Assembly: GCA_046154225.1 (NCBI GenBank) | Contig: JBJXEM010000007.1 | Location: 84,961-148,960 of the forward strand | Source of the DNA: Rickettsiales bacterium | Lineage (GTDB): Bacteria > Pseudomonadota > Alphaproteobacteria > Rickettsiales > UBA3002 | DNA length: 64,000 bases | Reading direction: 5' to 3' | In this document: in pieces, positions 4,114 to 26,704 of the stretch | How positions within the stretch are numbered: position 1 is the first letter of the stretch | Layout of the letters: every line of letters starts with the position of its first letter | Translations under genes and position numbers: made by a program | Notes under the pieces: generated by a model | What the model was told of the DNA's origin: nothing | What the model saw: only the letters and a program-made list of their open reading frames with translations | Databases searched by the model: none

Positions 4114-4953
4114 CTAAAACAGCAAATGGCGAATGACGATGAGGCCGAGCTTCGCCTTATTCAGCTTCACACGCGGTCGGGGTGCCGCAAACCCGCGCGC
4201 CATCAGGCCCGCGTAAATCGCGTGATATGCCTCGGCCATGACGCGTGGCGTGCGGATTTGTGCGCGGGTGCCGCGGCGCATAATAGCATCGGCCGTGTTA
4301 AAATGCGTTTGTGCCACGACGGCCAGTTCGTTGCACACCGCGCCCACCCGCGCATCTGCCACCACGGTTTGGGGCGAGGAGCTTTCGATGCCATGTTTCA
4401 CCAGCAATTCACGCGGCAGGTACAGCCGGTCGATGCCCGCATCCTCGTCGATATCGCGCAAAATATTGGTGAGCTGCAACGCGTTGCCGAGATGATGCGC
4501 GAGCGCCAACCCGTCGGCCTCATTCATGCCAAACACGCGCACGCTGAGGCGGCCCACGGCACAGGCCACGCGGTCGCAATAGAGTTCGAGCGTCGCCATG
4601 TCCGGTGCCTGAATCGGCCCGCGCACATCCATTTCCATGCCGTCGATCACGGCGAGAAAATCTTCATGCCGCAACCCGAAATCACGAACCGCCACGGCAA
4701 GGCCCGCATGCGCCAAGGTTGGGTTGCCCGCATACAGCGCCGCCAAATCGTCGCGCCATTGCTGAAGCTGCGTGAGGCGCACAGCGGCTTCGCCCGCTTC
4801 GTCGGCAATGTCGTCGACGGCGCGGCAGAAATGATAAATCTCGTACATCGCCTGCCGCTGGTGTGCGGGCATGATGCGCATTGCGGTAAAAAACGAGCTG
4901 CCGCGCGCGCTGGTGGCGGCGCTTTCGTTTTGTGTTAAGGCGTTCGCTTGCAT
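4114..4953 (-). CDS. hpnD: Presqualene diphosphate synthase HpnD
   Basis: SSFFTAMRIMP, RAVDDIAD, YCDRVA, LQLTNILRDIDED; start placed at ATG 4953 because the longer ORF only reads through a palindromic repeat. Confidence 0.92.
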   Translation of the reverse strand: MQANALTQNESAATSARGSSFFTAMRIMPAHQRQAMYEIYHFCRAVDDIADEAGEAAVRLTQLQQWRDDLAALYAGNPTLAHAGLAVAVRDFGLRHEDFLAVIDGMEMDVRGPIQAPDMATLELYCDRVACAVGRLSVRVFGMNEADGLALAHHLGNALQLTNILRDIDEDAGIDRLYLPRELLVKHGIESSSPQTVVADARVGAVCNELAVVAQTHFNTADAIMRRGTRAQIRTPRVMAEAYHAIYAGLMARGFAAPRPRVKLNKAKLGLIVIRHLLF

Positions 4954-15268: not shown

Positions 15269-15472
15269 CTCGGGTTTGGCCTAAGGAAACAGCTTAAACA
15301 TCACTTTCAGGGTGGACTCAGTACCCATTTATCCCCAACAACCACGCTGAAAGTGCTTGAGCGTCGCCGCCAGATCGGGTAGGTAAACGCACTTTGCAGC
15401 CCTGTGTCATTAGGCGTCACCGCCGCACAGACTGCGCAGACTGTTGTTTTTGTGTGGAAAGGTTACGTTATT

Positions 15473-17395
15473 TTGCACTCGACCCCGCTTCTTGACATGG
15501 TGAATGACCCGCGTGACACCCGGGGCTTTTCGCTTGAGCAACTCAAACAACTGGCCGCTGAACTGCGCTCGGAAACGGTGCGCGCGGTGTCGCACACCGG
15601 CGGGCATTTAGGCGCGGGCCTAGGGGTGATCGAACTCACCGTGGCCCTGCACCACGTGTTCAACACGCCCGACGACAAGCTGATCTGGGATGTGGGCCAC
15701 CAGACCTACCCGCACAAAATCCTCACCGGCCGTCGCGACCGCATCACCACCCTGCGCCAGCCGGGCGGCCTGTCGGGCTTCTGCAAACGCGACGAAAGCA
15801 TTTACGACACGTTCGACGCGGGCCACAGCTCCACTTCCATTTCCGCCGGTGTCGGCATGGCCGTCGCGCGCGATCTGGCGGGTAAAAACAACGAAGTGAT
15901 CGCCGTGATCGGCGACGGGGCGATGAGCGCCGGTATGGCCTACGAAGCTATGAATAACGCAGGTGCCCTGGGCACCCGCCTGATTGTGATTCTGAACGAT
16001 AACGACATGTCCATCGCGCCGCCGGTTGGGGCCATGAGCTCGTATTTGTCGCGCCTTATTTCGTCGCATCCTTACCGCTCGCTGCGGCATTTGGCGAAAG
16101 TGGTCGCCAGCAAATTCCCCGAGCCGCTGATGCGCATGGCCCGCTCGGCCGAAAAACACATGCGTGGCATGGCCACCGGCGGCACCTTGTTCGACGAGAT
16201 GGGCCTGTATTATGTCGGCCCCGTCGACGGCCACAACCTCGAGCACCTCGTGCCCATCCTGAAAAACATCCGCGACGAAAAGGATTCGGGCCCCGTGCTC
16301 ATCCACGTCGTGACGCAAAAAGGCCATGGCTACGCGCCCGCCGAAGCGTCGGACGATAAATACCACGGCGTGAACAAGTTCGATATCGCCACCGGCGTGC
16401 AGAAAAAATCGGTCGCCAGTGCGCCGAGCTACACCAAAGTGTTCGCGACCAGCCTGGTGGCCGAAGCGCAGGCCGACGATAAAATCGTCGCCATAAGCGC
16501 GGCCATGCCGGGCGGCACAGGGCTCGATATTTTCGGCAAAGCCTTTCCCAATCGCACGTTCGATGTGGGCATCGCCGAGCAGCACGCCGTCACCTTTGCC
16601 GCTGGCCTCGCGACGCAAGGCTACAAGCCATTCTGCGCCATTTATTCCACCTTCCTGCAACGCGCCTACGACCAGGTGGTGCACGACGTGGCGGTACAAA
16701 AACTCCCCGTCCGTTTCGGCCTCGACCGCGCCGGGCTTGTAGGTGCCGACGGCCCGACGCATGCGGGGGTATACGACCTCGCCTATTTGTGCGCATTGCC
16801 GCATTTCGTGGTCATGGCTGCCGCCGACGAACTTGAGTTGATGCACATGGTAGCCACCTCCGCCGCGATTGACGACGCGCCGAGCGCCATCCGCTACCCG
16901 CGCGGCGAAGGCATTGGCCTCGAGCTGCCCAAACGCGGCACCGTGCTTGAAATCGGCAAAGGCCGCATGGTGAAAGAAGGCGGCACACAAGTCGCGATCC
17001 TGTCGCTCGGTACACGCCTCGCCGAAAGCCTGAAAGCCGCCGAGCAGCTGGAAGCGCAAGGCATCTCCGTCAGCGTGGCCGACGCCCGTTTCGCCAAACC
17101 GCTCGACGAAGCGCTGATTACCAAATTGTTCAACGAACACGACCTCGTCATCACCGTCGAGGAAGGTGGCCATGGCGGCTTCGGCGCACATGTGCTGGCA
17201 TTCGCCGCCAGCGCCGGTTTGCTCACCAAGGCCGACGCACGCACCCTCACCTTGCCCGATACCTTCATCGAGCAAGGCATTCCGTTCGATATGTACGAAG
17301 AGGCCGGGCTGAATGCGAGCGGTATCGTGAAGGCTGCCGTGGAGGCTTTAAACATCGCCGACGCCCAGCCGCAAAAACTGCGCAAGGTGAAGTAA
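15473..17395 (+). CDS. dxs: 1-deoxy-D-xylulose-5-phosphate synthase
   Basis: [53 protein letters not shown]; start placed at TTG 15473 after GGAAAGG. Confidence 0.96.
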
Positions 17396-17553: not shown

Positions 17554-17669
17554 TATAGTCGTTCCAATTTTAATTGGGACGACTATGAATGACTGCGAAG
17601 CAGGAATTCCGCCGCGAAGCGAGCGTGACCCCAAATAAAAATGTCTCATTTTTATTTGGAAACACTATA
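17554..17669. mobile_element. Candidate MITE with TATAGT-type terminal inverted repeats
   Basis: Left end TATAGTCGTTCCAA, right end TTGGAAACACTATA; internal hairpins; a similar solo end at about 34565-34584. Confidence 0.5.
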
Positions 17670-18287
17670 GTTTGGTAATGCTTCCGCCTGTTTTTGCGAA
17701 ATCAGTCGTGGTGCCAGCGCCTCAAACGTACGGTCCATCGCCACCGTATTATTCAGCCCGAACGCCGAGAGATGGCCATAACGCAGCGAAAGTTGGTGGC
17801 TGGCCGTCGCCGCATCTTCGTGCTTCAGCGCCGCGAGGTAAAGCGCCGCCGCCAGCCCCGAACGATCGGCCCCGCCGCGGCAGTGAATCCACAAGGGTTT
17901 AGGGGCATCGCGCATGATGGCGATAAGCTGCGCGGCCTGCGCCTCGGTCAGCTCCCGCTTCGACGACATGCGGAAATTCAGGTGTTTTATCCCGGCCTTC
18001 TCGCTCGCCGCCAGTTCGTTTTGATACCATGGCGATTTCGCGTTCTCGCCGCGCAAATTCAAAATCGTGCGGATGCCGTATTGCTGGCTGTATTGCGCAA
18101 TCGCATTGCCTTCGGGCTGCGCCGAACGGTACAATTCGCCCGGCACCACTTCGTGAAAATTATCGCTGTATTGCAACCCGCCAAGGTAAAGCCCCAGCGC
18201 CAATGGCACCAGCAGGGCACGCAGCACCCAACGCAGCACAAAACGGCGGCGGCGTTTGGGGGCTTCAGGCATCGACGTATTTTTCAT
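17652..18287 (-). CDS. Membrane-anchored tyrosine/dual-specificity (PTP-fold) phosphatase
   Basis: HCRGGADRSG (HCx5R) motif, NFHEVVPGELYRSAQP, N-terminal hydrophobic helix. Confidence 0.85.
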   Translation of the reverse strand: MKNTSMPEAPKRRRRFVLRWVLRALLVPLALGLYLGGLQYSDNFHEVVPGELYRSAQPEGNAIAQYSQQYGIRTILNLRGENAKSPWYQNELAASEKAGIKHLNFRMSSKRELTEAQAAQLIAIMRDAPKPLWIHCRGGADRSGLAAALYLAALKHEDAATASHQLSLRYGHLSAFGLNNTVAMDRTFEALAPRLISQKQAEALPNYSVSK

Positions 18288-18484: not shown

Positions 18485-18587
18485 TTATCCCGAAAAACCA
18501 TCTTTACATCCTGAAGCCCCTGCGGCATCGAAATTTTATACGGCGCTTCGTACTGTGGGTGCATCCACACAGAACGAGGAGATACCG

Positions 18588-19127
18588 ATGTCCAACGTAG
18601 TTAAAAAAGTTGAGTACACGACACAGAACCCCGACGACCCCAATGTACGCGACCCCGAACACGCGCATGAGCTGGGCGGTGCGCTCGGCATGACTGTTGG
18701 CGGTGTGGCAGGCGGTATTGCTGCCGGCGTTGCAGCGGGTGCTGCCATGGGTTCAGTTGCTGGCCCTATCGGTGCCATTGCCGGTGCTGCTATTGGTGGC
18801 GCATTGGGCGGCGCTGCGGGCGAAAGTATAGCCGCGAATGTGAACCCCACAGTGGAAGAAAAATATTGGGAAACGACTTATGTCGATCGCCCTTACGTTC
18901 AGCAAGGTCGTAATTTCGATCATTACCGCCCGGCCTACCGTCATGGGATTGACGCTTATTCGAAATATGCAGGTAAATCGTTTGAAACCGTTGAGCCCGA
19001 ACTGCGCAGCAGTTGGGAAACGACGTATCCAGAAAAAGATGCGCTCGACTGGTCGGACGCACGCGACCCCGCACGCGATGCTTACAACCGCGTCCGCGAA
19101 AATTATTTCAAGAATAAAAAAGCTTAA
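18588..19127 (+). CDS. Glycine-zipper domain protein
   Basis: GAGGAG RBS; long GxxxG repeat (GGVAGGIAAGVAAGAA...GAAIGGALGGAAG) followed by EEKYW..YRPAYRHG domain. Confidence 0.75.
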   Translation: MSNVVKKVEYTTQNPDDPNVRDPEHAHELGGALGMTVGGVAGGIAAGVAAGAAMGSVAGPIGAIAGAAIGGALGGAAGESIAANVNPTVEEKYWETTYVDRPYVQQGRNFDHYRPAYRHGIDAYSKYAGKSFETVEPELRSSWETTYPEKDALDWSDARDPARDAYNRVRENYFKNKKA

Positions 19128-19158
19128 CGCAGGATACTCCCCCCATCTGTCTGCGTAG

Positions 19159-19190
19159 AACGGGAGTGGCCATGCCACTCCCGTTTTTTT
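19159..19190 (+). terminator. Rho-independent terminator
   Basis: ACGGGAGTGGC-cat-GCCACTCCCGT stem followed by T run. Confidence 0.85.
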
Positions 19191-19271
19191 GTCGGCATGG
19201 ATTGACGCGCGGTAAGGTTTCTTAATTCCCTTTTGCATAAAAAAACACGTATCGGGTAAGCAATTATACAC

Positions 19272-19390
19272 TGTCATCCCGGGTTTATCCCGGGATCCAG
19301 CCCCACTTACGCCTTGTGCCAGAGGTAGGGCTGGATCCCGGCACCTGCCTACGCCAAGGCTTCGGCAAGGCAGGCAAGGCCGGGATGACA
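19272..19390. repeat. Palindromic element family A with nested 31-bp insert
   Basis: Right arm identical to that of 8602-8723, insert at 19344-19374. Confidence 0.9.
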
Positions 19391-19443
19391 TGTCCGTGGT
19401 GTCTTGGTAAGGATGCAAGTGACTCTATCACTTGAGGGGCTAC

Positions 19444-20787
19444 ATGCATCCGCACAGCATAAACACGCAGCGATTAAGCGGCTGGGGCAACAGCCCGGTG
19501 GAAAGCTGTGCGGTGTGGCCGTTGCACGTGCCGGGCGATGCAGCGCGCATCATTCCCCTCGCCCCGAGTCTCATTGCCTATGGCGGTGGGCGCTCGTATG
19601 GCGACGCAGCGCTGAATCCACCCGGCACGGCCAAAACTGGCGCACTCAACAGCTTCATCGCGGTGGATGACGCGACGGGCATTACCACCGTCGAGGCCGG
19701 AGTCACTCTGCGCGATGTGCTGGACGCCATGGTGCCGCGCGGGTGGTTCCTGCCGGTGATTCCGGGCACGCAGTTCGCCACCATCGGCGGTGCATTGGCC
19801 GCCAATGTGCACGGCAAAAACCACCTGCGCATGGGCGATTTCGCGCGGCATGTGCTGTCGTTCGACCTGACACTCGCGAGCGGCGAAACCGTTTCGTGTT
19901 CGCTTGAGATCAATCCCGAATTATGGCACGCCACCATCAGCGGGCTCGGCATGACGGGCATCATCGAAAACGTGACGCTACAGCTCATGCCCATTCAATC
20001 AGCGCGCATGGAAGTGGCTTACACGGCCTGCGATTCCATTGAAGCGATGCTGGCGCAGTTTGAGGCACAGCGCGATTGCGCGGAATACCTCGTCGGCTGG
20101 GTCGACCATTTCGCGCGGGGCGCGCAGCTTGGGCGCGGCATTGTGGAAGCGGCGCGGCATGTGGCGGTGGCCGATGGCTCACTGGCCGCGCATCGGCCCA
20201 CACGCTCAGCACTCAACGTGCCGTTTTTTGCGCCAAGCTTCACCCTTAACCGCTACAGCATGGCGCTGTATAACGCGCACCGGTTCCGTCAGGCGCTTAA
20301 AACGCCCACGCGCACGGTGGGTTTTGCACATTTTTTTCACCCGCTCGATGGCATCGGCCACTGGAACCGGCTGTATGGCAAGCGCGGGCTGCTGCAATAC
20401 CAGTTCATCGTGCCGGATGGCGCATCGCTGCGGCCGATTCTTGAAGCCTTACAGCAAGCCAACCAATTCTCGTTCCTCGCGGTGTTGAAGGCGCATGGCG
20501 AGGGCAACGGCCTTATGGGTTTTTCGCGCCCCGGCTACAGCCTCGCGCTCGATTTCCCGAACACGCCTGCGGTGCATTCGTTGCTCGACAGCATCGACCA
20601 ACTAGTGCTCGCGGCTGGCGGGCGTGTTTACCTCGCAAAGGATGCGCGGCTAAAACGTGACGTTTTCAAAGCCATGTACGCCCACGCGCTGCCGCAGTGG
20701 CGCGCCACGCTGAAAGCATTTGACCCCACGGGGTATTTCATGAGCAGCATGGGCCGTCGCCTCGGTTTCAAGGAGTATGCATCATGA
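19444..20787 (+). CDS. dprE1: FAD-binding oxidoreductase, decaprenylphosphoryl-beta-D-ribose 2'-oxidase (DprE1) homologue
   Basis: GGGRSYGDAA, TIGGALAANVHGKNH, LYGKRGLLQYQF, LALDFP, GGRVYLAKD; followed by DprE2- and UbiA-like genes. Confidence 0.85.
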   Translation: MHPHSINTQRLSGWGNSPVESCAVWPLHVPGDAARIIPLAPSLIAYGGGRSYGDAALNPPGTAKTGALNSFIAVDDATGITTVEAGVTLRDVLDAMVPRGWFLPVIPGTQFATIGGALAANVHGKNHLRMGDFARHVLSFDLTLASGETVSCSLEINPELWHATISGLGMTGIIENVTLQLMPIQSARMEVAYTACDSIEAMLAQFEAQRDCAEYLVGWVDHFARGAQLGRGIVEAARHVAVADGSLAAHRPTRSALNVPFFAPSFTLNRYSMALYNAHRFRQALKTPTRTVGFAHFFHPLDGIGHWNRLYGKRGLLQYQFIVPDGASLRPILEALQQANQFSFLAVLKAHGEGNGLMGFSRPGYSLALDFPNTPAVHSLLDSIDQLVLAAGGRVYLAKDARLKRDVFKAMYAHALPQWRATLKAFDPTGYFMSSMGRRLGFKEYAS

Positions 20788-21512
20788 GTCACGCATTCAT
20801 TCTCGGGGCCACCTCCACCTTGGCACGCAGCGTGTGCCAGCAACTGGGGCCCACCACCGCGCATTTCACCCTCGTCGGCCGCGATGAGGAAAAGCTGGAG
20901 CGGTTGCAGCGCGACCTCAGCGCCCGTACCAACGCGAAAGTGTCGATTGAGGTGATTGATTTACTGGCTCCGTTTGACGCCCCCGCCCTCATCGCCCGCG
21001 CCGAAGAAGCCCATGGCCCCATCACCCACGGTTTCAGTTTCCCGGGCGCGCTCGGCAATGGCCGGGTGGACGACGCGGCGAATATCGCGGCGCTGGCGCT
21101 GGTGAATTACGTCGCACCCGCGCAATTTCTTACCGCCATCGCCGCGCGTATGCAGAAACGCCGCGCGGGGCAGCTTGTCGTCATTTCCTCGGTCGCGGGC
21201 GACCGGGGGCGCGCCAGCAATTACGCCTACGGCGCGGCTAAAGCGGCGCTGTCCACCTTCACCGGTGGGCTGCGCCAGCTGCTGCATGAGTCCGGCGTGC
21301 AGGTGCTACTCGTGAAGCCGGGATTCATCGACACGCCGATGGCCGCGGGTGTCAAAAGTAAACTCATGGCTTCGCCTGATGCAGTGGCTGCGATTATTCT
21401 CAAAGCCATGGAAAAAGGCAGCGGCAGCATTTACGCGCCGTGGTTCTGGCGGATTATTATGGGCATCATCATCCACCTGCCCGCCCCGATTTTCAACCGT
21501 TTGAAATTATGA
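20784..21512 (+). CDS. dprE2: SDR, decaprenylphosphoryl-2-keto-erythropentose reductase (DprE2) homologue
   Basis: ILGATS, SSVAGDRGRASNYAYGAAKA, VKPGFIDTPM; ATGA overlap with dprE1. Confidence 0.8.
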   Translation: MSHAFILGATSTLARSVCQQLGPTTAHFTLVGRDEEKLERLQRDLSARTNAKVSIEVIDLLAPFDAPALIARAEEAHGPITHGFSFPGALGNGRVDDAANIAALALVNYVAPAQFLTAIAARMQKRRAGQLVVISSVAGDRGRASNYAYGAAKAALSTFTGGLRQLLHESGVQVLLVKPGFIDTPMAAGVKSKLMASPDAVAAIILKAMEKGSGSIYAPWFWRIIMGIIIHLPAPIFNRLKL

Positions 21513-22369
21513 CCCCACTTCTCAAGCTCTGCCGCCCGAAACAGTGGGTGAAAAACCTGTTCGTGCTGGCGCCGCTGGTGTTCGCGCAGCAGGCGGGGCA
21601 GGAACAGCCGCTGCATATGGCACTGGTGGCATTCGTGGCGTTCACGCTCGCCTCGATCGTCGGCTATATCGTGAACGATATGCGCGACCTTGATGCCGAC
21701 CGCCTGCACCCCAAAAAACGCTTGCGGCCATTAGCGGCAGGCACCGTCAGCCTCCATCAGGCGAAACTGCTCATCGTGGCGCTGGTGGTGCCGTTGATTG
21801 CACTGGTATCGATATTGCCGATGGAGGCGACGCTCACCATTCTCGGTTATTTCCTGCTCATGCTGTGCTACTCGCAATGGCTCAAGCACATCGCCATTAT
21901 CGACGTGATGGTGATCGGCGCGGGTTTCGTACTGCGGCTGCTGGCAGGCGGCTACGCCACCGGCATTGCGCTCTCGCCATGGATTATTCAGGTGACGTTT
22001 TTGCTGTCGTTGTTTCTCGGCTTCGGCAAACGCTACGGCGAAATCACCAGCGACACGGGAAACTCTGCGCGCAAAAGCCTGCATGGCTATTCCAGCGAAT
22101 TCCTCGACCGCTTAATGGCCATCTGTTGCGGCGCGACGCTTTTGTCCTATGCCATTTACGCAGTGGATACGGCCGCACGCCTCCACCGCACGGCGTTTGT
22201 CTATTCCAGCCTGTTCGTGGCGTTCGGCATGTTCCGCTATTTGCAGCAGCTTTACCTGCACAGCCACGGCGAAGCACCGGAAGAAGCGCTCTACCATGAC
22301 CGGCTTTTCCTCGCCAACATCGTGGCATGGCTGTTGTTTTGCCTGTGGCAATTTGGCGGAGCGGCTTAA
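21509..22369 (+). CDS. UbiA-family polyprenyl-phosphate phosphoribosyltransferase (Rv3806c/NoeC-like)
   Basis: RPKQWVKN, YIVND.RD...DR.HPKKR.RPLAAG, LFLGFGKRYGE; ATGA overlap with dprE2. Confidence 0.88.
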   Translation: MTPLLKLCRPKQWVKNLFVLAPLVFAQQAGQEQPLHMALVAFVAFTLASIVGYIVNDMRDLDADRLHPKKRLRPLAAGTVSLHQAKLLIVALVVPLIALVSILPMEATLTILGYFLLMLCYSQWLKHIAIIDVMVIGAGFVLRLLAGGYATGIALSPWIIQVTFLLSLFLGFGKRYGEITSDTGNSARKSLHGYSSEFLDRLMAICCGATLLSYAIYAVDTAARLHRTAFVYSSLFVAFGMFRYLQQLYLHSHGEAPEEALYHDRLFLANIVAWLLFCLWQFGGAA

Positions 22370-22442: not shown

Positions 22443-23366
22443 ATGCCAACACGCACCCCATCCATCGCCGTATTGTTGCCGTGCTATAACGAGGCCATTA
22501 CCCTCGCGCAGGTGATTGGCGAATTCAGGCAAAGCCTGCCCACCGCGCGCATCGTGGTGTTCGACAACAACTCGAAGGATGACTCCGTCGCCATCGCCAA
22601 AGCGGCGGGCGTAGAAGTTTTCCATGTGAACCTGCAAGGCAAAGGCAATGTGGTGCGCCGCATGTTCGCCGATATCGACGCCGATATTTACGTGATGGCC
22701 GATGCCGATGCGACCTACGACGCCAGCCGCGCTAGCGAATTGGTGGCGCCGATTATGAGCGGCGAGGCAGATACCGTCATCGCCGTGCGCGAGGCAGATC
22801 GCAGCGCGTTCCCCTCGGGCCATTTGTTCGGCAACAAGATGTTTAACTTAGTGGTGGGTCGCCTTTTCGGGCGCGGTTTGCGCGATATTTTCTCGGGCTA
22901 CCGGGCATTTTCGTACCGCTTCGCCAAAAGTTTCCCGGCCCACAGCGAAGGCTTCGAGATAGAAACCGAAATGAGCATTTTCATCCTCGAACAACGCATT
23001 CCGGCGCTTGAAATCGGCATGAAGTACGGCGTGCGGCCTGAAGGCTCGGTCAGCAAACTGCACACCTACCGCGACGGGTTTCGTATTTTAATGACCATTC
23101 TGCGCTTGTTCAAGGAAGCAAAACCCCTGCTGTTCTTCTCGATTTTCGCGGGCCTGTTTGGGTTCGGTAGCCTCATGCTCGGCCTGCCGCTGGTGAATGA
23201 ATGGAGCGAAACCGGCATGGTTCCGCGCATGCCCACGGCCATTCTGGCCTCGGGCTTCGCGCTGCTGGCTGTGATTGTCTTCGTAGCCGGGTTGATGCTC
23301 GACAGCGTGGCGCGCACCTACCGCGAAACGCGCCATTTGCGTTACCTCAACGCCCGTCGGAATTAA
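22443..23366 (+). CDS. GT2 polyprenol-phosphate glycosyltransferase (GtrB/DPM-like)
   Basis: LLPCYNEA, DNNSKD, QGKGN, MADADATY, DIFSGYRAF, GFEIETE, two C-terminal TM helices. Confidence 0.88.
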   Translation: MPTRTPSIAVLLPCYNEAITLAQVIGEFRQSLPTARIVVFDNNSKDDSVAIAKAAGVEVFHVNLQGKGNVVRRMFADIDADIYVMADADATYDASRASELVAPIMSGEADTVIAVREADRSAFPSGHLFGNKMFNLVVGRLFGRGLRDIFSGYRAFSYRFAKSFPAHSEGFEIETEMSIFILEQRIPALEIGMKYGVRPEGSVSKLHTYRDGFRILMTILRLFKEAKPLLFFSIFAGLFGFGSLMLGLPLVNEWSETGMVPRMPTAILASGFALLAVIVFVAGLMLDSVARTYRETRHLRYLNARRN

Positions 23367-23367
23367 C

Positions 23368-23775
23368 GTGCGCCAGCGCGTCACAGAATTCCTGCGCTTT
23401 TGCATCGTGGGCCTGATGGGCTATTTCGTCGATGCGGGCACACTCGAATTACTGGTGCATGCGGGTCTGGAAAGCTGGCTCGCGCGCGTCTTTTCCATCC
23501 CGACCGCCCTACAATGCACTTACGCGCTGCACGGCCTGTTCACCTATCGCGGCCATGGCGATTTCAGTCGCCGAAAATGGGCCGGATTCATGCTGTACAA
23601 CCTGCTCGGTGCGGCCATTAACTATACGATTTTCCTGATCGTGCTGCGCATGCTACCTTTCACTTCGGAACTGGCGCAACGGCAAGGCGCGTTGTTTTGC
23701 GGTATGGCCGTCGCACTATGGTTTAACTACTGGGCGACGCGACACTTCGTGTTCCGCCGCGCGGATCGCCCATGA
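23368..23775 (+). CDS. GtrA family flippase
   Basis: 135 aa, four hydrophobic segments, FLRFCIVG start and FNYWATRHFVF end. Confidence 0.85.
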   Translation: MRQRVTEFLRFCIVGLMGYFVDAGTLELLVHAGLESWLARVFSIPTALQCTYALHGLFTYRGHGDFSRRKWAGFMLYNLLGAAINYTIFLIVLRMLPFTSELAQRQGALFCGMAVALWFNYWATRHFVFRRADRP

Positions 23776-25664
23776 GCACGCGCCTCGCCGATTACAGAAA
23801 CGGGCTGCTGGCATTGCTGGTGATGCTCGTACCACTGGTGCTGATGGTCATCCGTCACTGGCACGACATTCCGCTCGATGCGAACGGCCGCGCGTTCGGC
23901 GTGGCCGACCCCGACCCGTGGCTGCGCCTCACCCTCGTGCGCGAATGGCTGAGCGGCGGCAGTTGGTTCGATCACAGCGTCGCGCGCACGAATGCACCGT
24001 TCGGCGGTATCGTCAGCCCGTGGACGCGGCCGCTGGATGTGGTGATCGCCGCCTTCACGCAGCTGCAACCCTACAGCGTCGCGCTCGACATTCGCCTCGC
24101 GCGCACGGCGCTCATGCTGCCGGTGCTGTGGGCGGCACTCATGATGCTGGGTGTTTACCGTGCCGTGTGGGCCTTCGCGCCCATGCGCACTGTGCTATGG
24201 ATGGCCAATGCGTTGGCCCTCACCGGCCTTTCCATGTGGGCCTTTTTTGTCGCGGGCTATGCCGACCACCACGCGCCGCTTGCGGTGCTGTTGGTGTGGG
24301 TGGTGGGCGGCCTGTTGCGGGGTGATAAATTTTCGCTGGGCTTCAGTGGCGTGCTGCTCGGCCTCATGCTGTGGATGAGCCCGGAAGCGCTGATTCTCAT
24401 CGGCGCGATTTACGCGTGGCTGGGCCTCGCGTGGCTACGCGGCGCACCACTGGCGGCGAAACAATTGCTGCTGGTATCGGGTTACGCTGCCCTCACCACC
24501 ATTGCGGCGCTACTGATCGAGAGGCCCGAAGCACAATGGTTCACGCCAGTCTACGATTCCATTTCCATCGTGCATGCGTGGCTGATGGCGGGCTGTGCGT
24601 TGATTGCGTTGCTGATGGTGACGATCGAGGGCGATGCGCTACAGCCACTCACCTTCCGCTGGCGCTGGCGTATTGCGGCAGTGAGCGTGGCGTTTCTGCT
24701 CAAACTGCTCCACCATTACTACCCGCTGTTTTTCGCGGGGCCCATGGTGGGGGTCGACCCCTACATCACCAATCATTTCCTGAAAATCATCACCGAGGCG
24801 CAGCCTGTCACCAGCCATCACTGGCTGTTCATCGCCGCCATGCTGGCACAACCGCTTATGGCGCTTTGCGTCACGCTACGCGCCACGCGCGGGGGCAGCG
24901 TTATCCCCCAAAAGCAGGCGCGGCTGCTGGCGTTTCTTCTGGCGTTTACGCTGTTGCTCTACGCGGTCGAGCAGCGCTGGTATTATTATTTCTACCCGCT
25001 AGTCGTCATCACCCTTGCCCCGTGGCTGGCGGCGCTGATGAACCCGACGCACCCCCTCACCACCGGCCGCGCACCGGCGCGTTGGCTGGAAGCCCTGACG
25101 CCGAACCAGCAGGCACTGCGGCGCATGCCGGTGGTGCTTGCATTGTTAGCCGCGCAAGGCCTTTTATTGCTGGCCGCGCCCGATGAAACCACCCCGCGTT
25201 CGCGCAACATCAACACCTGCCATGCCAAAGCACGCAGCCTCATTTACAGCGGTGCGCTGAATGATTTGGGCGGTGGCAAACCCCTTACCGTTTTCACTTC
25301 CACCGACCTTGGCGGTGAAATCCTGTTCTGGACACCGCATCGCATCATCGCCTCGAACTACCACCGCGAGGGGCCGGGCATTCGCTATGTGTGGGAGGCC
25401 GATGCGATAACCGACGCACAGGCATTGCGCCGCTACTTGGCCCAGCGTCATGTCGATGCATTACTGATTTGCCCCGTCGTTCGCGCGCCGGAAGCAAGTG
25501 TGCTGCAAGGCCTGCAACAAAGTAAACCAACGCCCGCATGGCTGAAGCGCGTAGCCGTCACCATTCCGCTAAAGCCCGACACGGACGCGAAACCCACGCC
25601 GGACGACATGCCGGATAGCACCTCCAACCCCGCCGTTTTTCTGGTTGTGGGCCATAGAACTTGA
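23772..25664 (+). CDS. Multi-pass GT-C glycosyltransferase, STT3/AglB-like
   Basis: DPDPWLRL..PFGG..PW..P.D, GYADHH, about 11-13 hydrophobic segments, soluble C-terminal domain VFTSTDLGGEILFWTPHRIIASNYH; ATGA overlap with gtrA. Confidence 0.7.
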   Translation: MSTRLADYRNGLLALLVMLVPLVLMVIRHWHDIPLDANGRAFGVADPDPWLRLTLVREWLSGGSWFDHSVARTNAPFGGIVSPWTRPLDVVIAAFTQLQPYSVALDIRLARTALMLPVLWAALMMLGVYRAVWAFAPMRTVLWMANALALTGLSMWAFFVAGYADHHAPLAVLLVWVVGGLLRGDKFSLGFSGVLLGLMLWMSPEALILIGAIYAWLGLAWLRGAPLAAKQLLLVSGYAALTTIAALLIERPEAQWFTPVYDSISIVHAWLMAGCALIALLMVTIEGDALQPLTFRWRWRIAAVSVAFLLKLLHHYYPLFFAGPMVGVDPYITNHFLKIITEAQPVTSHHWLFIAAMLAQPLMALCVTLRATRGGSVIPQKQARLLAFLLAFTLLLYAVEQRWYYYFYPLVVITLAPWLAALMNPTHPLTTGRAPARWLEALTPNQQALRRMPVVLALLAAQGLLLLAAPDETTPRSRNINTCHAKARSLIYSGALNDLGGGKPLTVFTSTDLGGEILFWTPHRIIASNYHREGPGIRYVWEADAITDAQALRRYLAQRHVDALLICPVVRAPEASVLQGLQQSKPTPAWLKRVAVTIPLKPDTDAKPTPDDMPDSTSNPAVFLVVGHRT

Positions 25665-25687: not shown

Positions 25688-25776
25688 TGTCATCCCGGCC
25701 TTGTGCCGGGATCCAGCCACGCAACGTAGTAAGTGCCTATGGCTTGGCTGGATCCCGGGATAAACCCGGGATGACA
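25688..25776. repeat. Palindromic element family A
   Basis: TGTCATCCCGGCCTTGTGCCGGGATCCAG...CTGGATCCCGGGATAAACCCGGGATGACA. Confidence 0.9.
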
Positions 25777-25872
25777 GACGAAATTGACTTCAGCTAACCC
25801 GCAAACGGCATTTGTCATTTTGCTAAAATGGTATAGTGCTGACACTTCACCATCTGAGCCCGGAGAATTGCC

Positions 25873-26067
25873 ATGCCCATCGTTCAAATCCACATGCTGG
25901 AAGGCCGCGACATCAACAAAAAGCGCGAGCTGGTGAAGCGCATGACCGAAACCGTGCAGGAAGTGCTGGGCTCGCCGCCGCATAAAATCCGCATCATTCT
26001 GTCGGACATGGCGCACCAAAACTACTCCGTCGCCGGCAAGCTGTATTGCGACGAGGACCTGACCTAA
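25873..26067 (+). CDS. 4-oxalocrotonate tautomerase family protein
   Basis: (M)PIVQIHMLEGR with catalytic Pro1; 64 aa; GGAGA RBS. Confidence 0.88.
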   Translation: MPIVQIHMLEGRDINKKRELVKRMTETVQEVLGSPPHKIRIILSDMAHQNYSVAGKLYCDEDLT

Positions 26068-26141
26068 ACTACTGGTTTTTCCCCATCCGTATGTTATAGT
26101 ATGACTTGATATGATTAAGTATGAAGAATAAGGGGTTTCCT

Positions 26142-26405
26142 ATGGCTGACCTAGAACGCATTACTATCGCTATGCCCGCCGAAATGGCGGCAATGCTACG
26201 CGCCACTGTTGAGCGTGGGGAATACGCTTCGACCAGCGAAATCATCCGCGAGGCATTGCGCGACTGGAACCGCAAGCAGGAAAATTACGAACGTGACCTC
26301 GCGGAACTACGCGAAGCCATTCGCGTTGGCGACGAAAGCGGGCCGGGTATTCCGATGGATGAAGCGTTCGCCGAGATTTACCGCCGCCTGAAACAGAATC
26401 ATTAG
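26142..26405 (+). CDS. parD: ParD-like ribbon-helix-helix antitoxin
   Basis: ITIAMP...VERGEYASTSEIIREALR...LREAIRVGDESG. Confidence 0.85.
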   Translation: MADLERITIAMPAEMAAMLRATVERGEYASTSEIIREALRDWNRKQENYERDLAELREAIRVGDESGPGIPMDEAFAEIYRRLKQNH

Positions 26406-26413
26406 GATACACC

Positions 26414-26704
26414 ATGCTTGGCATTGTGCTGCGTCCTCAAGCGCTCCATGATTTGGAAGCTATTGGCCGTTTCATCGGCGCCGACAACCCTAAGCGCGGC
26501 GAATCGTATGTGCAGGAACTACATACATTCATTGATGGGCTAGCCGACTTTCCACACATTTACCCCGCGGTGCCCGAATTAGACGATGCGCGCTTGGCAC
26601 AATACGGCAAATACCATATCTATTATCGCATAACGGCTACCCAGCTTTTTGTGGTCCGTGTCCTGCACAGTGCCCGCGACATAGCAAAGAATTTTAACAC
26701 ATGA
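26414..26704 (+). CDS. parE: ParE/RelE family toxin
   Basis: PQALHDLEAI..FI..DNP, LADFP, YHIYYR..VVRVLHSARD. Confidence 0.85.
   Translation: MLGIVLRPQALHDLEAIGRFIGADNPKRGESYVQELHTFIDGLADFPHIYPAVPELDDARLAQYGKYHIYYRITATQLFVVRVLHSARDIAKNFNT

Follow-up and report, generated by a model that had tools for sequence, protein, structure and literature searches.

We analyzed a stretch of 64,000 nucleotides (nt; hereafter, the window) from the genome of a Rickettsiales bacterium (Alphaproteobacteria; GTDB lineage UBA3002; assembly GCA_046154225.1, contig JBJXEM010000007.1, positions 84,961 to 148,960 of the forward strand), with a focus on an open reading frame (ORF) whose product resembles the glycosyltransferases STT3 and AglB. 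This ORF starts with ATG, extends from position 23772 to 25664 on the plus strand, exactly as given in the original prediction, which had been made from the letters of the DNA, and encodes 630 amino acids (aa); its GC content at third codon positions (0.76) was similar to that of the neighboring genes. At its 5' end, it overlaps by 4 nt a gene for a small membrane protein of the GtrA family (135 aa; 23368..23775, plus strand; Pfam GtrA_DPMS_TM, 9.5e-20), which is separated by 1 nt from a gene for a GT2 polyprenyl-phosphate glycosyl synthase of the GtrB/DPMS/AglJ type (307 aa; 22443..23366, plus strand; Pfam Glycos_transf_2). As detailed below, the 630-aa product (hereafter, the STT3-like protein) is a real but highly diverged bacterial relative of STT3/AglB, and the three genes form the conserved system, a Gtr-type three-component periplasmic module. 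The 2.18-Mb host assembly (98.5% complete) was obtained from biofilter metagenomes; the sequence of the STT3-like gene was found only in biofilter DNA metagenomes, and none of the RNA runs contained it.

Because single-sequence searches with the STT3-like protein were empty in both Pfam (no family at E < 0.1) and the PDB (no chain matched by phmmer), its relationship to STT3/AglB is visible only by a family profile and a structure model. Among curated models, archaeo_STT3 of NCBIfam (TIGR04154) matched it with E = 1e-4 and 20.9 bits against a cut-off of 450 bits, and the protein scored below the cut-off of every STT3 model. A profile built from 48 family members (alignment A1) matched the membrane part of AglB-L from Archaeoglobus fulgidus (AfAglB-L; 3waj/5gmy; E = 1e-4) and, separately, the C-terminal domains of the short paralogues AglB-S2 (3vu0, E = 4e-3) and AglB-S1 (3vgp, E = 1.6e-2). 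In a Pfam scan of 38 diverse members, a single one matched PF02516 (STT3; E = 3.7e-6).

The AlphaFold2 (AF2) model of the STT3-like protein, built on A1, had a pLDDT of 94.3 and a pTM of 0.94, and displayed the GT-C(A) fold of the family GT66, with 13 transmembrane (TM) helices, the long external loops EL1 (residues ~30–104) and EL5 (~317–350), and a small extracytoplasmic alpha/beta domain at the C-terminus. When this model was compared with the PDB using Foldseek, AglB, yeast and human STT3 and PglB were the 17 best matches and accounted for 19 of the best 22 (E from 1e-12 to 2e-6, TM-scores of 0.49–0.67); the other three were the C-mannosyltransferase DPY19 (~4e-7), and ALG9, Emb and AftA ranked far lower (E ~1e-3 or worse). 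The C-terminal periplasmic domain (residues ~475–630; 25194..25661, plus strand) matched 3vu0 and 3vgp with the profile and 3vu0 with Foldseek (TM-score of 0.55 normalized to the target), and is a homologue of the minimal domain with which the short AglB paralogues end. The model predicts that this domain and the catalytic loops lie on the same non-cytoplasmic side as in AglB. A GT-C/STT3-like structure had been named beforehand as a point on which the original prediction would stand or fall, and the model shows an STT3-like fold. The likeness to AglB motifs that had been noticed by eye is thus homology and not chance, as the profile matches, the AF2 model with Foldseek, the NCBIfam match and the Pfam STT3 match of one member all indicate; the motif strings quoted at that time are all present in the protein (DPDPWLRL at residues 46–53, APFGG at 75–79, SPWTRPLD at 82–89, GYADHH at 162–167 and VFTSTDLGGEILFWTPHRIIASNYH at 507–531).

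We compared the catalytic positions with those of AglB in A1 and in a wider alignment (A2), checking the residue numbers of AfAglB-L by counting along the profile alignment. The acidic motif D46-P-D48 at the start of EL1 (first DXD-like motif; 23907..23915, plus strand), with R52 after it, was conserved in A1 columns (D48 and R52 in 48/48, D46 in 44/48), and the AF2 model placed D46 and D48 at the start of the first EL1 helix. Their probable equivalence to D47 of AglB and D56 of PglB rests on position, because the site lies outside the stretch aligned by the profile. The second metal-binding motif (DxH), D165-H166-H167 (24264..24272, plus strand; 48/48), was aligned column for column with D161-H162-H163 of AfAglB-L. 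In EL5, E342 within I-T-E-A-Q-P (24795..24797, plus strand; 48/48 in A1 and ≥90% in A2) was the counterpart of the TIXE/SVSE glutamate and was aligned with E360 of AfAglB-L (T357-I-A-E360), and R402 within Q-R-W (24975..24977, plus strand; invariant in A1 and A2) was the counterpart of the arginine that binds the lipid phosphate, with QQRW aligned to Q-N-R426. D161/H163, E360 and R426 are the known catalytic residues of AfAglB-L, as seen in AglB and PglB structures. The catalytic set of the family was likewise invariant in 38 diverse sequences and was kept in members from cultured sphingomonads and rhizobia. These results agree with the earlier claim that the catalytic core acting on the lipid donor is kept, since D46/D48, D165-H166-H167, E342 and R402 are invariant or nearly so, D165/H167, E342 and R402 being assigned by alignment and D46/D48 by position only.

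At the position of the WWDYG motif, the STT3-like protein carries S510-T-D-L-G514 (25299..25313, plus strand), and the profile aligned its p-T-D-L-G consensus with W-W-D-Y-G of AglB-S2 and AglB-S1. Both Trp residues are missing at the aligned position. However, the Asp and the Gly are retained: in A1, residue 512 was D in 32/48 and N in 12/48 members, and residue 514 was G in 42/48. In a wider sample, the position read x-x-D-(F/Y/L/M)-G-(P)-E, and some members retained DYG. The proposal that STDLG replaces WWDYG was therefore correct for the Trp pair and not for the Asp and Gly, and the letters STDLG as such are not conserved across the family. The WWD residues of oligosaccharyltransferases (OSTs) read the Ser/Thr at position +2 of the sequon, and the two Trp of PglB provide two of the three hydrogen bonds to its hydroxyl group. 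From the absence of both Trp, it is reasonable to infer that this protein no longer recognizes N-X-S/T. No conserved D..K or M..I (the DK/MI motif) was found downstream of the WWDYG position, where the alignment to AglB-S2 was weak. As the STT3-like protein lacks WWDYG and falls short of all curated model thresholds, it should not be annotated as an OST.

The family also has signatures of its own, namely D-x-D-x-x-x-R-L and (S/H)-W-T-R-P-x-D in EL1, W-x-S-x-E, Y-D-S-x-S and N/P-Y-H-R. The last of these, N529-Y-H-R532 (25356..25367, plus strand), was nearly invariant in A1 (Y530 46/48, H531 46/48, R532 47/48), was kept in the cultured sphingomonad and rhizobial members, and was located where SNYH is aligned with NNF(Q) of AglB-S2. 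Within the periplasmic domain, C483, R559 and C567 were invariant, and C483 and C567 plausibly form a disulfide.

To characterize the gene neighborhoods, we collected 79 loci with an STT3-like gene from a scan of one genome per prokaryotic species, searched 10 kb on either side with six proteins of the window using tblastn, and clustered the 1256 neighboring ORFs. In 36 or more of 72 loci, a GT2 gene lay next to the STT3-like gene. In many loci, GtrA adjoined the STT3-like gene or was fused to the N-terminus of the enzyme. The adjacent GT2 copies were 60–71% identical to that of the window in the host genus and a Micavibrio-like clade, in which one to three tandem STT3-like copies occurred per locus, and 36–55% identical in distant rhizobial and sphingomonad clades. 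Among 61 related genomes, 25 of which carried the STT3-like gene, all 20 genomes with a GT2 orthologue carried it (Fisher P = 8.5e-12), and outside the host genus the same held for 2/2 (P = 0.0045); these counts ignore kinship, and 22 of the 25 positive genomes belong to one genus. The GT2 protein itself has two C-terminal TM helices, matched the AglJ model of NCBIfam at 7e-63 (212.7 bits, under the cut-off of 325 bits), and had dolichol-phosphate-mannose synthase of Pyrococcus furiosus (5mlz, 9e-8) as its best match in the PDB. From its family, we propose that the GtrA protein is the flippase for a polyprenyl-phosphate-sugar. The STT3-like gene is accordingly the last gene of a synthase-flippase-transferase unit, as had been suggested, with a GT2 synthase, a small flippase-type protein and, in the model, an outer-face GT-C enzyme.

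The components of this unit diverged at different rates. Identity to the window was ~80% for PurA, 63–74% for HisZ, ~70% for GT2, 40–53% for GtrA and 39–49% for the STT3-like protein. The conserved GT2 and the fast-evolving STT3-like transferase match what is known of gtrB and gtr* genes, where the synthase changes little and the transferase diverges quickly. In seven rhizobial metagenome-assembled genomes (MAGs; loci L047, L048, L054, L057, L060, L062 and L063), a 116-aa SMR/EamA-like protein with four TM helices replaces GtrA, its gene being located between divergently oriented GT2 and STT3-like genes; the presence of this protein in the place of GtrA implies that the flippase component is interchangeable. 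In locus L112, a contig whose enzyme is 72% identical to that of the window, a gene for a 115-aa small transporter of the DMT_6 family (4276-4623) overlaps the stop codon of the STT3-like gene by 4 nt; it may encode a second flippase, with no counterpart in the genome of the window.

The family is large and has escaped annotation. A search of 5.8 billion proteins yielded ~90 full-length relatives, of which those with a name are all called ‘hypothetical protein’ except for GtrA fusions (one ‘GtrA family protein’ and one ‘putative flippase GtrA’), and a profile search of 1.84 billion cluster representatives (clusters at 50% identity) yielded 6102 clusters at E ≤ 1e-3 and 2683 at E ≤ 1e-30. None of the 38 diverse members in the Pfam scan had a family model of its own, two of them containing a fused GtrA domain, and full-text literature searches found no description of the family. 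Most of the 79 loci were from alphaproteobacterial MAGs labeled Rickettsiales, ‘Azospirillum’, Micavibrio, Hyphomicrobiales or Devosiaceae, and a few were labeled Myxococcales, Gemmatimonadota, Dehalococcoidia or Patescibacteria. Distant members are encoded by cultured Sphingosinicella, Sphingobium and Novosphingobium, and the cultured carriers also include Plastoroseomonas; the system is therefore directly testable. Near the host, the gene was present in 22 of 24 genomes of the genus (the host included, and split copies and one pseudogene counted), in 1 of 13 other genomes (12 genera) of the family and in 2 of 24 other families of the order. The pseudogene, in genome G021 (contig C6, 60003-61836), is broken into six pieces that lie in different frames and contains a stop codon, and in G010 the gene is split over contigs C85 and C151, the C85 piece carrying a TAG. 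In Micavibrio-like MAGs (L027, L029 and L031–L038), a GtrA::STT3-like fusion is followed by one or two tandem STT3-like paralogues, and these loci lie between mreB-mreC-mreD-PBP2 at one end and, at the other, GMP reductase and mnmE.

We observed the fold, the homology, the conserved residues, the gene linkage and the co-occurrence, and propose the following mechanism. The STT3-like protein is probably the transferase of a three-component periplasmic module that delivers a lipid-carried single sugar to an extracytoplasmic acceptor. On the cytoplasmic face, GT2 would charge polyprenyl phosphate with a single sugar taken from a nucleotide sugar. This sugar is most likely a hexose, so that the probable donor is polyprenyl-phosphate-hexose. 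GtrA would flip the lipid-linked sugar, and the STT3-like enzyme would transfer the sugar to the acceptor on the periplasmic side, presumably by means of a divalent-metal site of the OST type (D46/D48, D165/H167 and E342) and the phosphate-binding R402. With both Trp of WWDYG gone and no recognizable DK/MI motif, N-X-S/T would not be read. As part of the same explanation, we consider it probable that these proteins form a large bacterial sister family of the STT3/AglB/PglB OSTs without annotation.

Among known proteins, archaeal AglBs (GT66) come nearest to the STT3-like protein, above all those of A. fulgidus: AglB-L and, in particular, the short paralogues AglB-S1 and AglB-S2, which have a similar length (~600 aa). 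With AglB, the STT3-like protein shares the 13-TM GT-C fold, long EL1 and EL5, a small C-terminal globular domain, aligned counterparts of the DxD-like EL1 motif, the DxH motif, the EL5 glutamate, the arginine and the D and G of WWDYG, and an AglJ-like synthase as its partner; haloarchaeal AglB uses a polyprenyl mono-phosphate donor. However, it differs from AglB by the absence of the Trp pair and of a recognizable DK/MI motif, by motifs of its own (SPWTRPxD in EL1, YDSIS, NYHR and the invariant Cys pair), by its bacterial origin, by scores under every curated STT3 threshold and by a donor that is probably a single sugar. PglB of Campylobacter and Desulfovibrio is likewise a single-subunit bacterial STT3 homologue of the same fold (Foldseek E from 3e-7 to 2e-6), whereas PglB has WWDYG and the MI motif and reads D/E-X-N-X-S/T, neither of which is seen here, and uses an undecaprenyl-diphosphate-oligosaccharide from a pgl cluster with the Wzx-type flippase PglK, none of which is seen here either. 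DPY19 (GT98), which uses a polyprenyl mono-phosphate monosaccharide donor and a peptide acceptor (tryptophan C-mannosylation), is a structural neighbor (E = 4e-7, TM-score of 0.59); in contrast to this, profiles point to AglB, and the metal-binding DxH and the TIXE-like glutamate are OST features.

In organization, the module resembles the Gtr-type systems (GtrA/GtrB/Gtr*, ArnC/ArnEF/ArnT, RgtE/RgtA-D, CsbB/GtcA/YfhO and GtrB/PgtC2), with the same three roles in tight gene order, an interchangeable type of flippase, paralogous GT-C enzymes that share one synthase, and a variable GT-C. The described GT-C components, however, are Gtr*, ArnT/PMT_2, YfhO or GT136, and the one found here is of the STT3 lineage; a Gtr-type module whose GT-C comes from this lineage is new. 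STT3-type enzymes catalyze N-glycosylation in eukaryotes, archaea and a narrow set of bacteria, with WWDYG considered the hallmark. Here the same catalytic machine, without the sequon reader, appears to be wired into a Gtr-type monosaccharide module. Its family comprises thousands of sequence clusters, for which neither Pfam nor NCBIfam offers a model and no structure has been solved. Knowing the donor and the acceptor would establish a new group at the level of CAZy, would reveal whether the active site of OSTs can act beyond N-X-S/T, and would bear on the evolution of OSTs; as sequon-independent transferases, such enzymes are possibly of interest to glycoengineers.

Upstream of the module, the window contains three further genes on the plus strand, encoding a DprE1-like oxidase (19444-20787; NCBIfam DprE1, 3e-106), a DprE2-like reductase (20784-21512; NCBIfam DprE2, 1e-43) and a UbiA-type polyprenyl-phosphate phosphoribosyltransferase (21509-22369; NCBIfam decaprenyl-phosphate phosphoribosyltransferase, 3e-67). 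By these family matches, it is well supported that the trio encodes the pathway for polyprenyl-phospho-arabinofuranose (DPA). Within each of the two modules the genes overlap or nearly touch, and a gap of 73 nt with a weak promoter-like match separates the UbiA and GT2 genes. The original prediction had regarded all six genes as a self-contained operon with arabinofuranose as a possible donor. Our results did not bear this out: DprE1, DprE2 and UbiA were found within 10 kb in none of the 78 other STT3-like loci (tblastn), and DprE1 was present in 9 of the 61 related genomes, including 2 of the 25 STT3-like carriers (odds ratio 0.36). The trio also travels elsewhere, forming a compact cassette in the other seven genomes examined; it is scattered over many families of the host order and behaves as a mobile cassette. 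Several of these other cassettes are flanked by a GtrA-type gene of their own (~50% identical among themselves and 20–23% identical to GtrA of the window) and by large polytopic GT-C-like proteins, which are dissimilar to the STT3-like protein and lack a homologue in the genome of the window. The adjacency of UbiA, GT2, GtrA and the STT3-like gene was otherwise seen only in two Logan contigs, which show ~80% nucleotide identity across the block and whose enzymes are 79% and 72% identical to that of the window. Given the absent linkage in 78 loci and the independent distribution, the six-gene ‘operon’ is best described as two modules juxtaposed in one sublineage; in the proposed mechanism, DprE1-DprE2-UbiA would be a second donor pathway adjacent to the module in this sublineage only. 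In this window, the link with arabinofuranose is probably incidental, and unless evidence is found, annotations should not assign the arabinofuranose genes to the system of the STT3-like gene. In genome G008, UbiA is fused, as judged by eye, to an N-terminal HAD-like domain, like the ORF15 type of Citrobacter.

The genome encodes several other GT-C enzymes. Two belong to PMT_2, each beside a GT2 synthase of its own that is distant from GT2 of the window. One lies in a second three-component module on contig C32 (5461-14983), with a cytidylyltransferase/cupin protein, a GT2-GtrA fusion (367 aa) and the PMT_2 enzyme (508 aa), directly after which a 2031-aa ORF may be the target of that module. 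The other lies in a third module on contig C18 (8786-13205), with an NAD-dependent sugar epimerase (by eye), GT2, an LPG_synthase_TM protein and the PMT_2 enzyme; this module resembles the rhizobial Rgt galacturonosyl system for lipopolysaccharide (LPS). Three GT87 genes (C2:12681-13859, C5:31123-32367 and C6:135473-136144) have no adjacent donor synthase. GT87 was frequent in genomes with GT2 and the STT3-like gene, and its presence did not track DprE1 among the related genomes. DprE1 and strong PMT_2 matches co-occurred (6/9, P = 0.002), and PMT_2 enzymes may be DPA consumers, although each has its own synthase.

The juxtaposition of the two modules raises the possibility that the STT3-like enzyme of the window consumes DPA, alone or beside the GT2 product, and we regard this as unlikely. 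The arrangement itself suggests it, as the six genes are co-directional with only the 73 nt between the modules, and UbiA and DprE1/DprE2 lie directly upstream of the GT-C gene, as in described pentofuranose/DPA systems (GT136 ORF12, TfpW and Emb/Aft; PMC11127046). The genome of the window lacks both a GtrA of the type found at other DPA cassettes and the GT-C-like proteins flanking them, its two PMT_2 enzymes are each paired with their own GT2, and the translationally coupled DMT_6 gene downstream of the STT3-like gene in L112 could be read in the same direction. Moreover, a GT-C with a relaxed choice of pentofuranose donor, promiscuous for ribofuranose and xylofuranose, has been documented (PMC11127046). 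However, a switch of donor from pyranose to furanose is a larger step than that promiscuity. The cassette is missing from the 78 other loci, only 2 of the 25 STT3-like carriers also have DprE1, fewer than expected by chance, and the enzyme in the rest of the genus works without DPA. If the donor had been switched, the cassette-adjacent enzyme might have diverged; we tested this, and the sublineage was no more diverged than other members of the genus. Homology to the pentofuranose enzymes is limited to the general GT-C fold, linkage is confined to one sublineage, and elsewhere the cassette has other GT-C-like partners. EmbA/B/C and AftA were weak structural matches (Foldseek E from 1e-3 to 2e-2, TM-scores of 0.30–0.36). 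Neither consistent linkage with DprE1/DprE2 nor likeness to known arabinofuranosyltransferases was seen, and the three orphan GT87 genes are plausible alternative consumers of DPA. AftC is a GT87 enzyme. It is still less probable, and indeed very improbable, that the STT3-like protein is catalytically dead or a non-transferase, such as a scaffold or a transporter, that keeps the fold. The family has no Pfam or NCBIfam model, and the activity of its members is a prediction only. Nevertheless, all four catalytic positions of OSTs stay the same throughout thousands of diverged sequences, the gene is constantly linked to a donor synthase and a flippase, and it is kept in ~21 of the 23 other genomes of the genus (split copies and the G021 pseudogene counted). 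Several observations do weigh against the main reading, a transferase fed by the GT2 product, besides the kinship within the co-occurrence counts. Some loci encode another GT2 (28% identity) or lack one nearby (L016, L021 and L034–L038), and hence the donor may vary. The genome contains the three orphan GT87 genes, and in G041 a GT87 gene lies 2 kb from a GT2 homologue, implying that the GT2 product may feed several GT-C enzymes. The order UbiA-GT2-GtrA-STT3-like is kept in the two Logan contigs, and in the genome of the window the DPA cassette is the only donor pathway that lacks an evident GT-C partner; hence arabinofuranose may still be used here. Donor identity, flipping, catalysis and the acceptor are what we infer.

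If the STT3-like protein is the transferase of the three-component module, its acceptor could be a side chain of a periplasmic or surface protein or else a glycan or lipid, with roughly even odds; the probability of each is part of that of the module reading as a whole, and each is put forward tentatively. In the former case, the enzyme would be either a true N-glycosyltransferase whose sequon is altered or missing, or one of the O- or C-type, placing single sugars on periplasmic or surface proteins. To our knowledge, every characterized enzyme of the structural clade (STT3/AglB/PglB and DPY19) glycosylates peptides, and no characterized STT3-clade enzyme has a non-peptide acceptor, which speaks for a protein and against a glycan or lipid. 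D48 and E342, the two carboxylates with which OSTs clamp the acceptor amide, are retained, as is, largely, the D of WWD, which favors a protein, but two of the three hydrogen-bond partners of the +2 Ser/Thr are lost, and the loss of this sequon-reading Trp pair suits a glycan or lipid. Sphingomonads have no LPS. The presence of the family in lineages with very different envelope glycans, sphingomonads included, is consistent with a protein and argues against a glycan or lipid such as O antigen, LPS core or lipid A, capsule or glycosphingolipid, the kind of acceptor that Gtr*, ArnT and RgtA-D use. Such an acceptor is nevertheless suggested by the classic Gtr-type gene organization, by a conserved synthase and a fast-diverging transferase, as is typical of serotype-specific gtr* genes, and by tandem paralogues that share one synthase, which resemble RgtA-D. 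A Wzy_C-family ligase or polymerase is encoded in the genome, and thus an O-antigen-type pathway probably exists, but Wzy_C does not discriminate between the acceptor types because it is nearly universal in the relatives. The gene neighborhoods gave little guidance: no conserved acceptor gene was present near the module among the 1256 clustered ORFs of the 79 loci, which counts against a protein, and in none of the examined loci was the module embedded among genes for LPS or polysaccharide synthesis, which counts against a glycan. The genes that recurred nearby had housekeeping roles or reflected synteny within particular clades (chemoreceptors, a hybrid kinase, HisZ, PurA, MreBCD/PBP2, GuaB/GuaC, MnmE, MutS, MutL, MepA, MsrA, ArgG and FolD). 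Pilin, LPS and hopanoid, which had been proposed as acceptors, thus found no support there, and a role in the cell wall, weakly hinted at by MreBCD in the Micavibrio-like clade and MepA in one Hyphomicrobiales clade, was not adopted. Protein glucosylation by GtrB with a YfhO-family GT-C is known in streptococci (PMC12041528), which again speaks for a protein. A possible, though doubtful, generalization is that a widespread bacterial branch of the OST lineage puts single sugars from polyprenyl mono-phosphate on periplasmic or surface proteins without N-X-S/T, at Asn or other side chains. If so, bacteria would have a third general route to protein glycosylation, and the branch would possibly be a living model of OSTs before sequon reading and oligosaccharide donors. 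A glycan or lipid, if it were the acceptor, would represent a class of acceptors that is new to the STT3 fold.

Some further genes of the window were observed on either side of the two modules. Downstream of the STT3-like gene lies a gene for a 64-aa 4-oxalocrotonate-tautomerase-like protein (25873-26067, plus strand); this is the real gene there, and a 109-aa ORF on the minus strand (25690-26019) was rejected as spurious. A ParD/ParE toxin-antitoxin pair (26121-26704, plus strand) is inserted between the tautomerase-like gene and hisZ, and the pair is missing in the 81%-identical contig L091. On the other side, between a membrane-anchored PTP/DSP-type phosphatase (17652-18287, minus strand) and DprE1, lies a gene (18555-19127, plus strand) for a protein of 190 aa that contains a Gly/Ala-rich segment resembling a glycine zipper and belongs to no Pfam family; a minus-strand ORF that overlaps it (18753-19418) looks non-coding. 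It would be pure speculation that the phosphatase supplies the 5'-phosphatase step for polyprenyl-phosphoribose-5-phosphate, for which no other enzyme is evident. The gene for DXS, the first enzyme of the methylerythritol phosphate pathway of isoprenoid synthesis, lies ~2 kb upstream of the cassette (15404-17395), and in the genome of another family a DXS gene (65% identical; L105:1695-3605) is directly beside the cassette; this proximity may reflect a functional or ancestral link with the supply of the lipid carrier.

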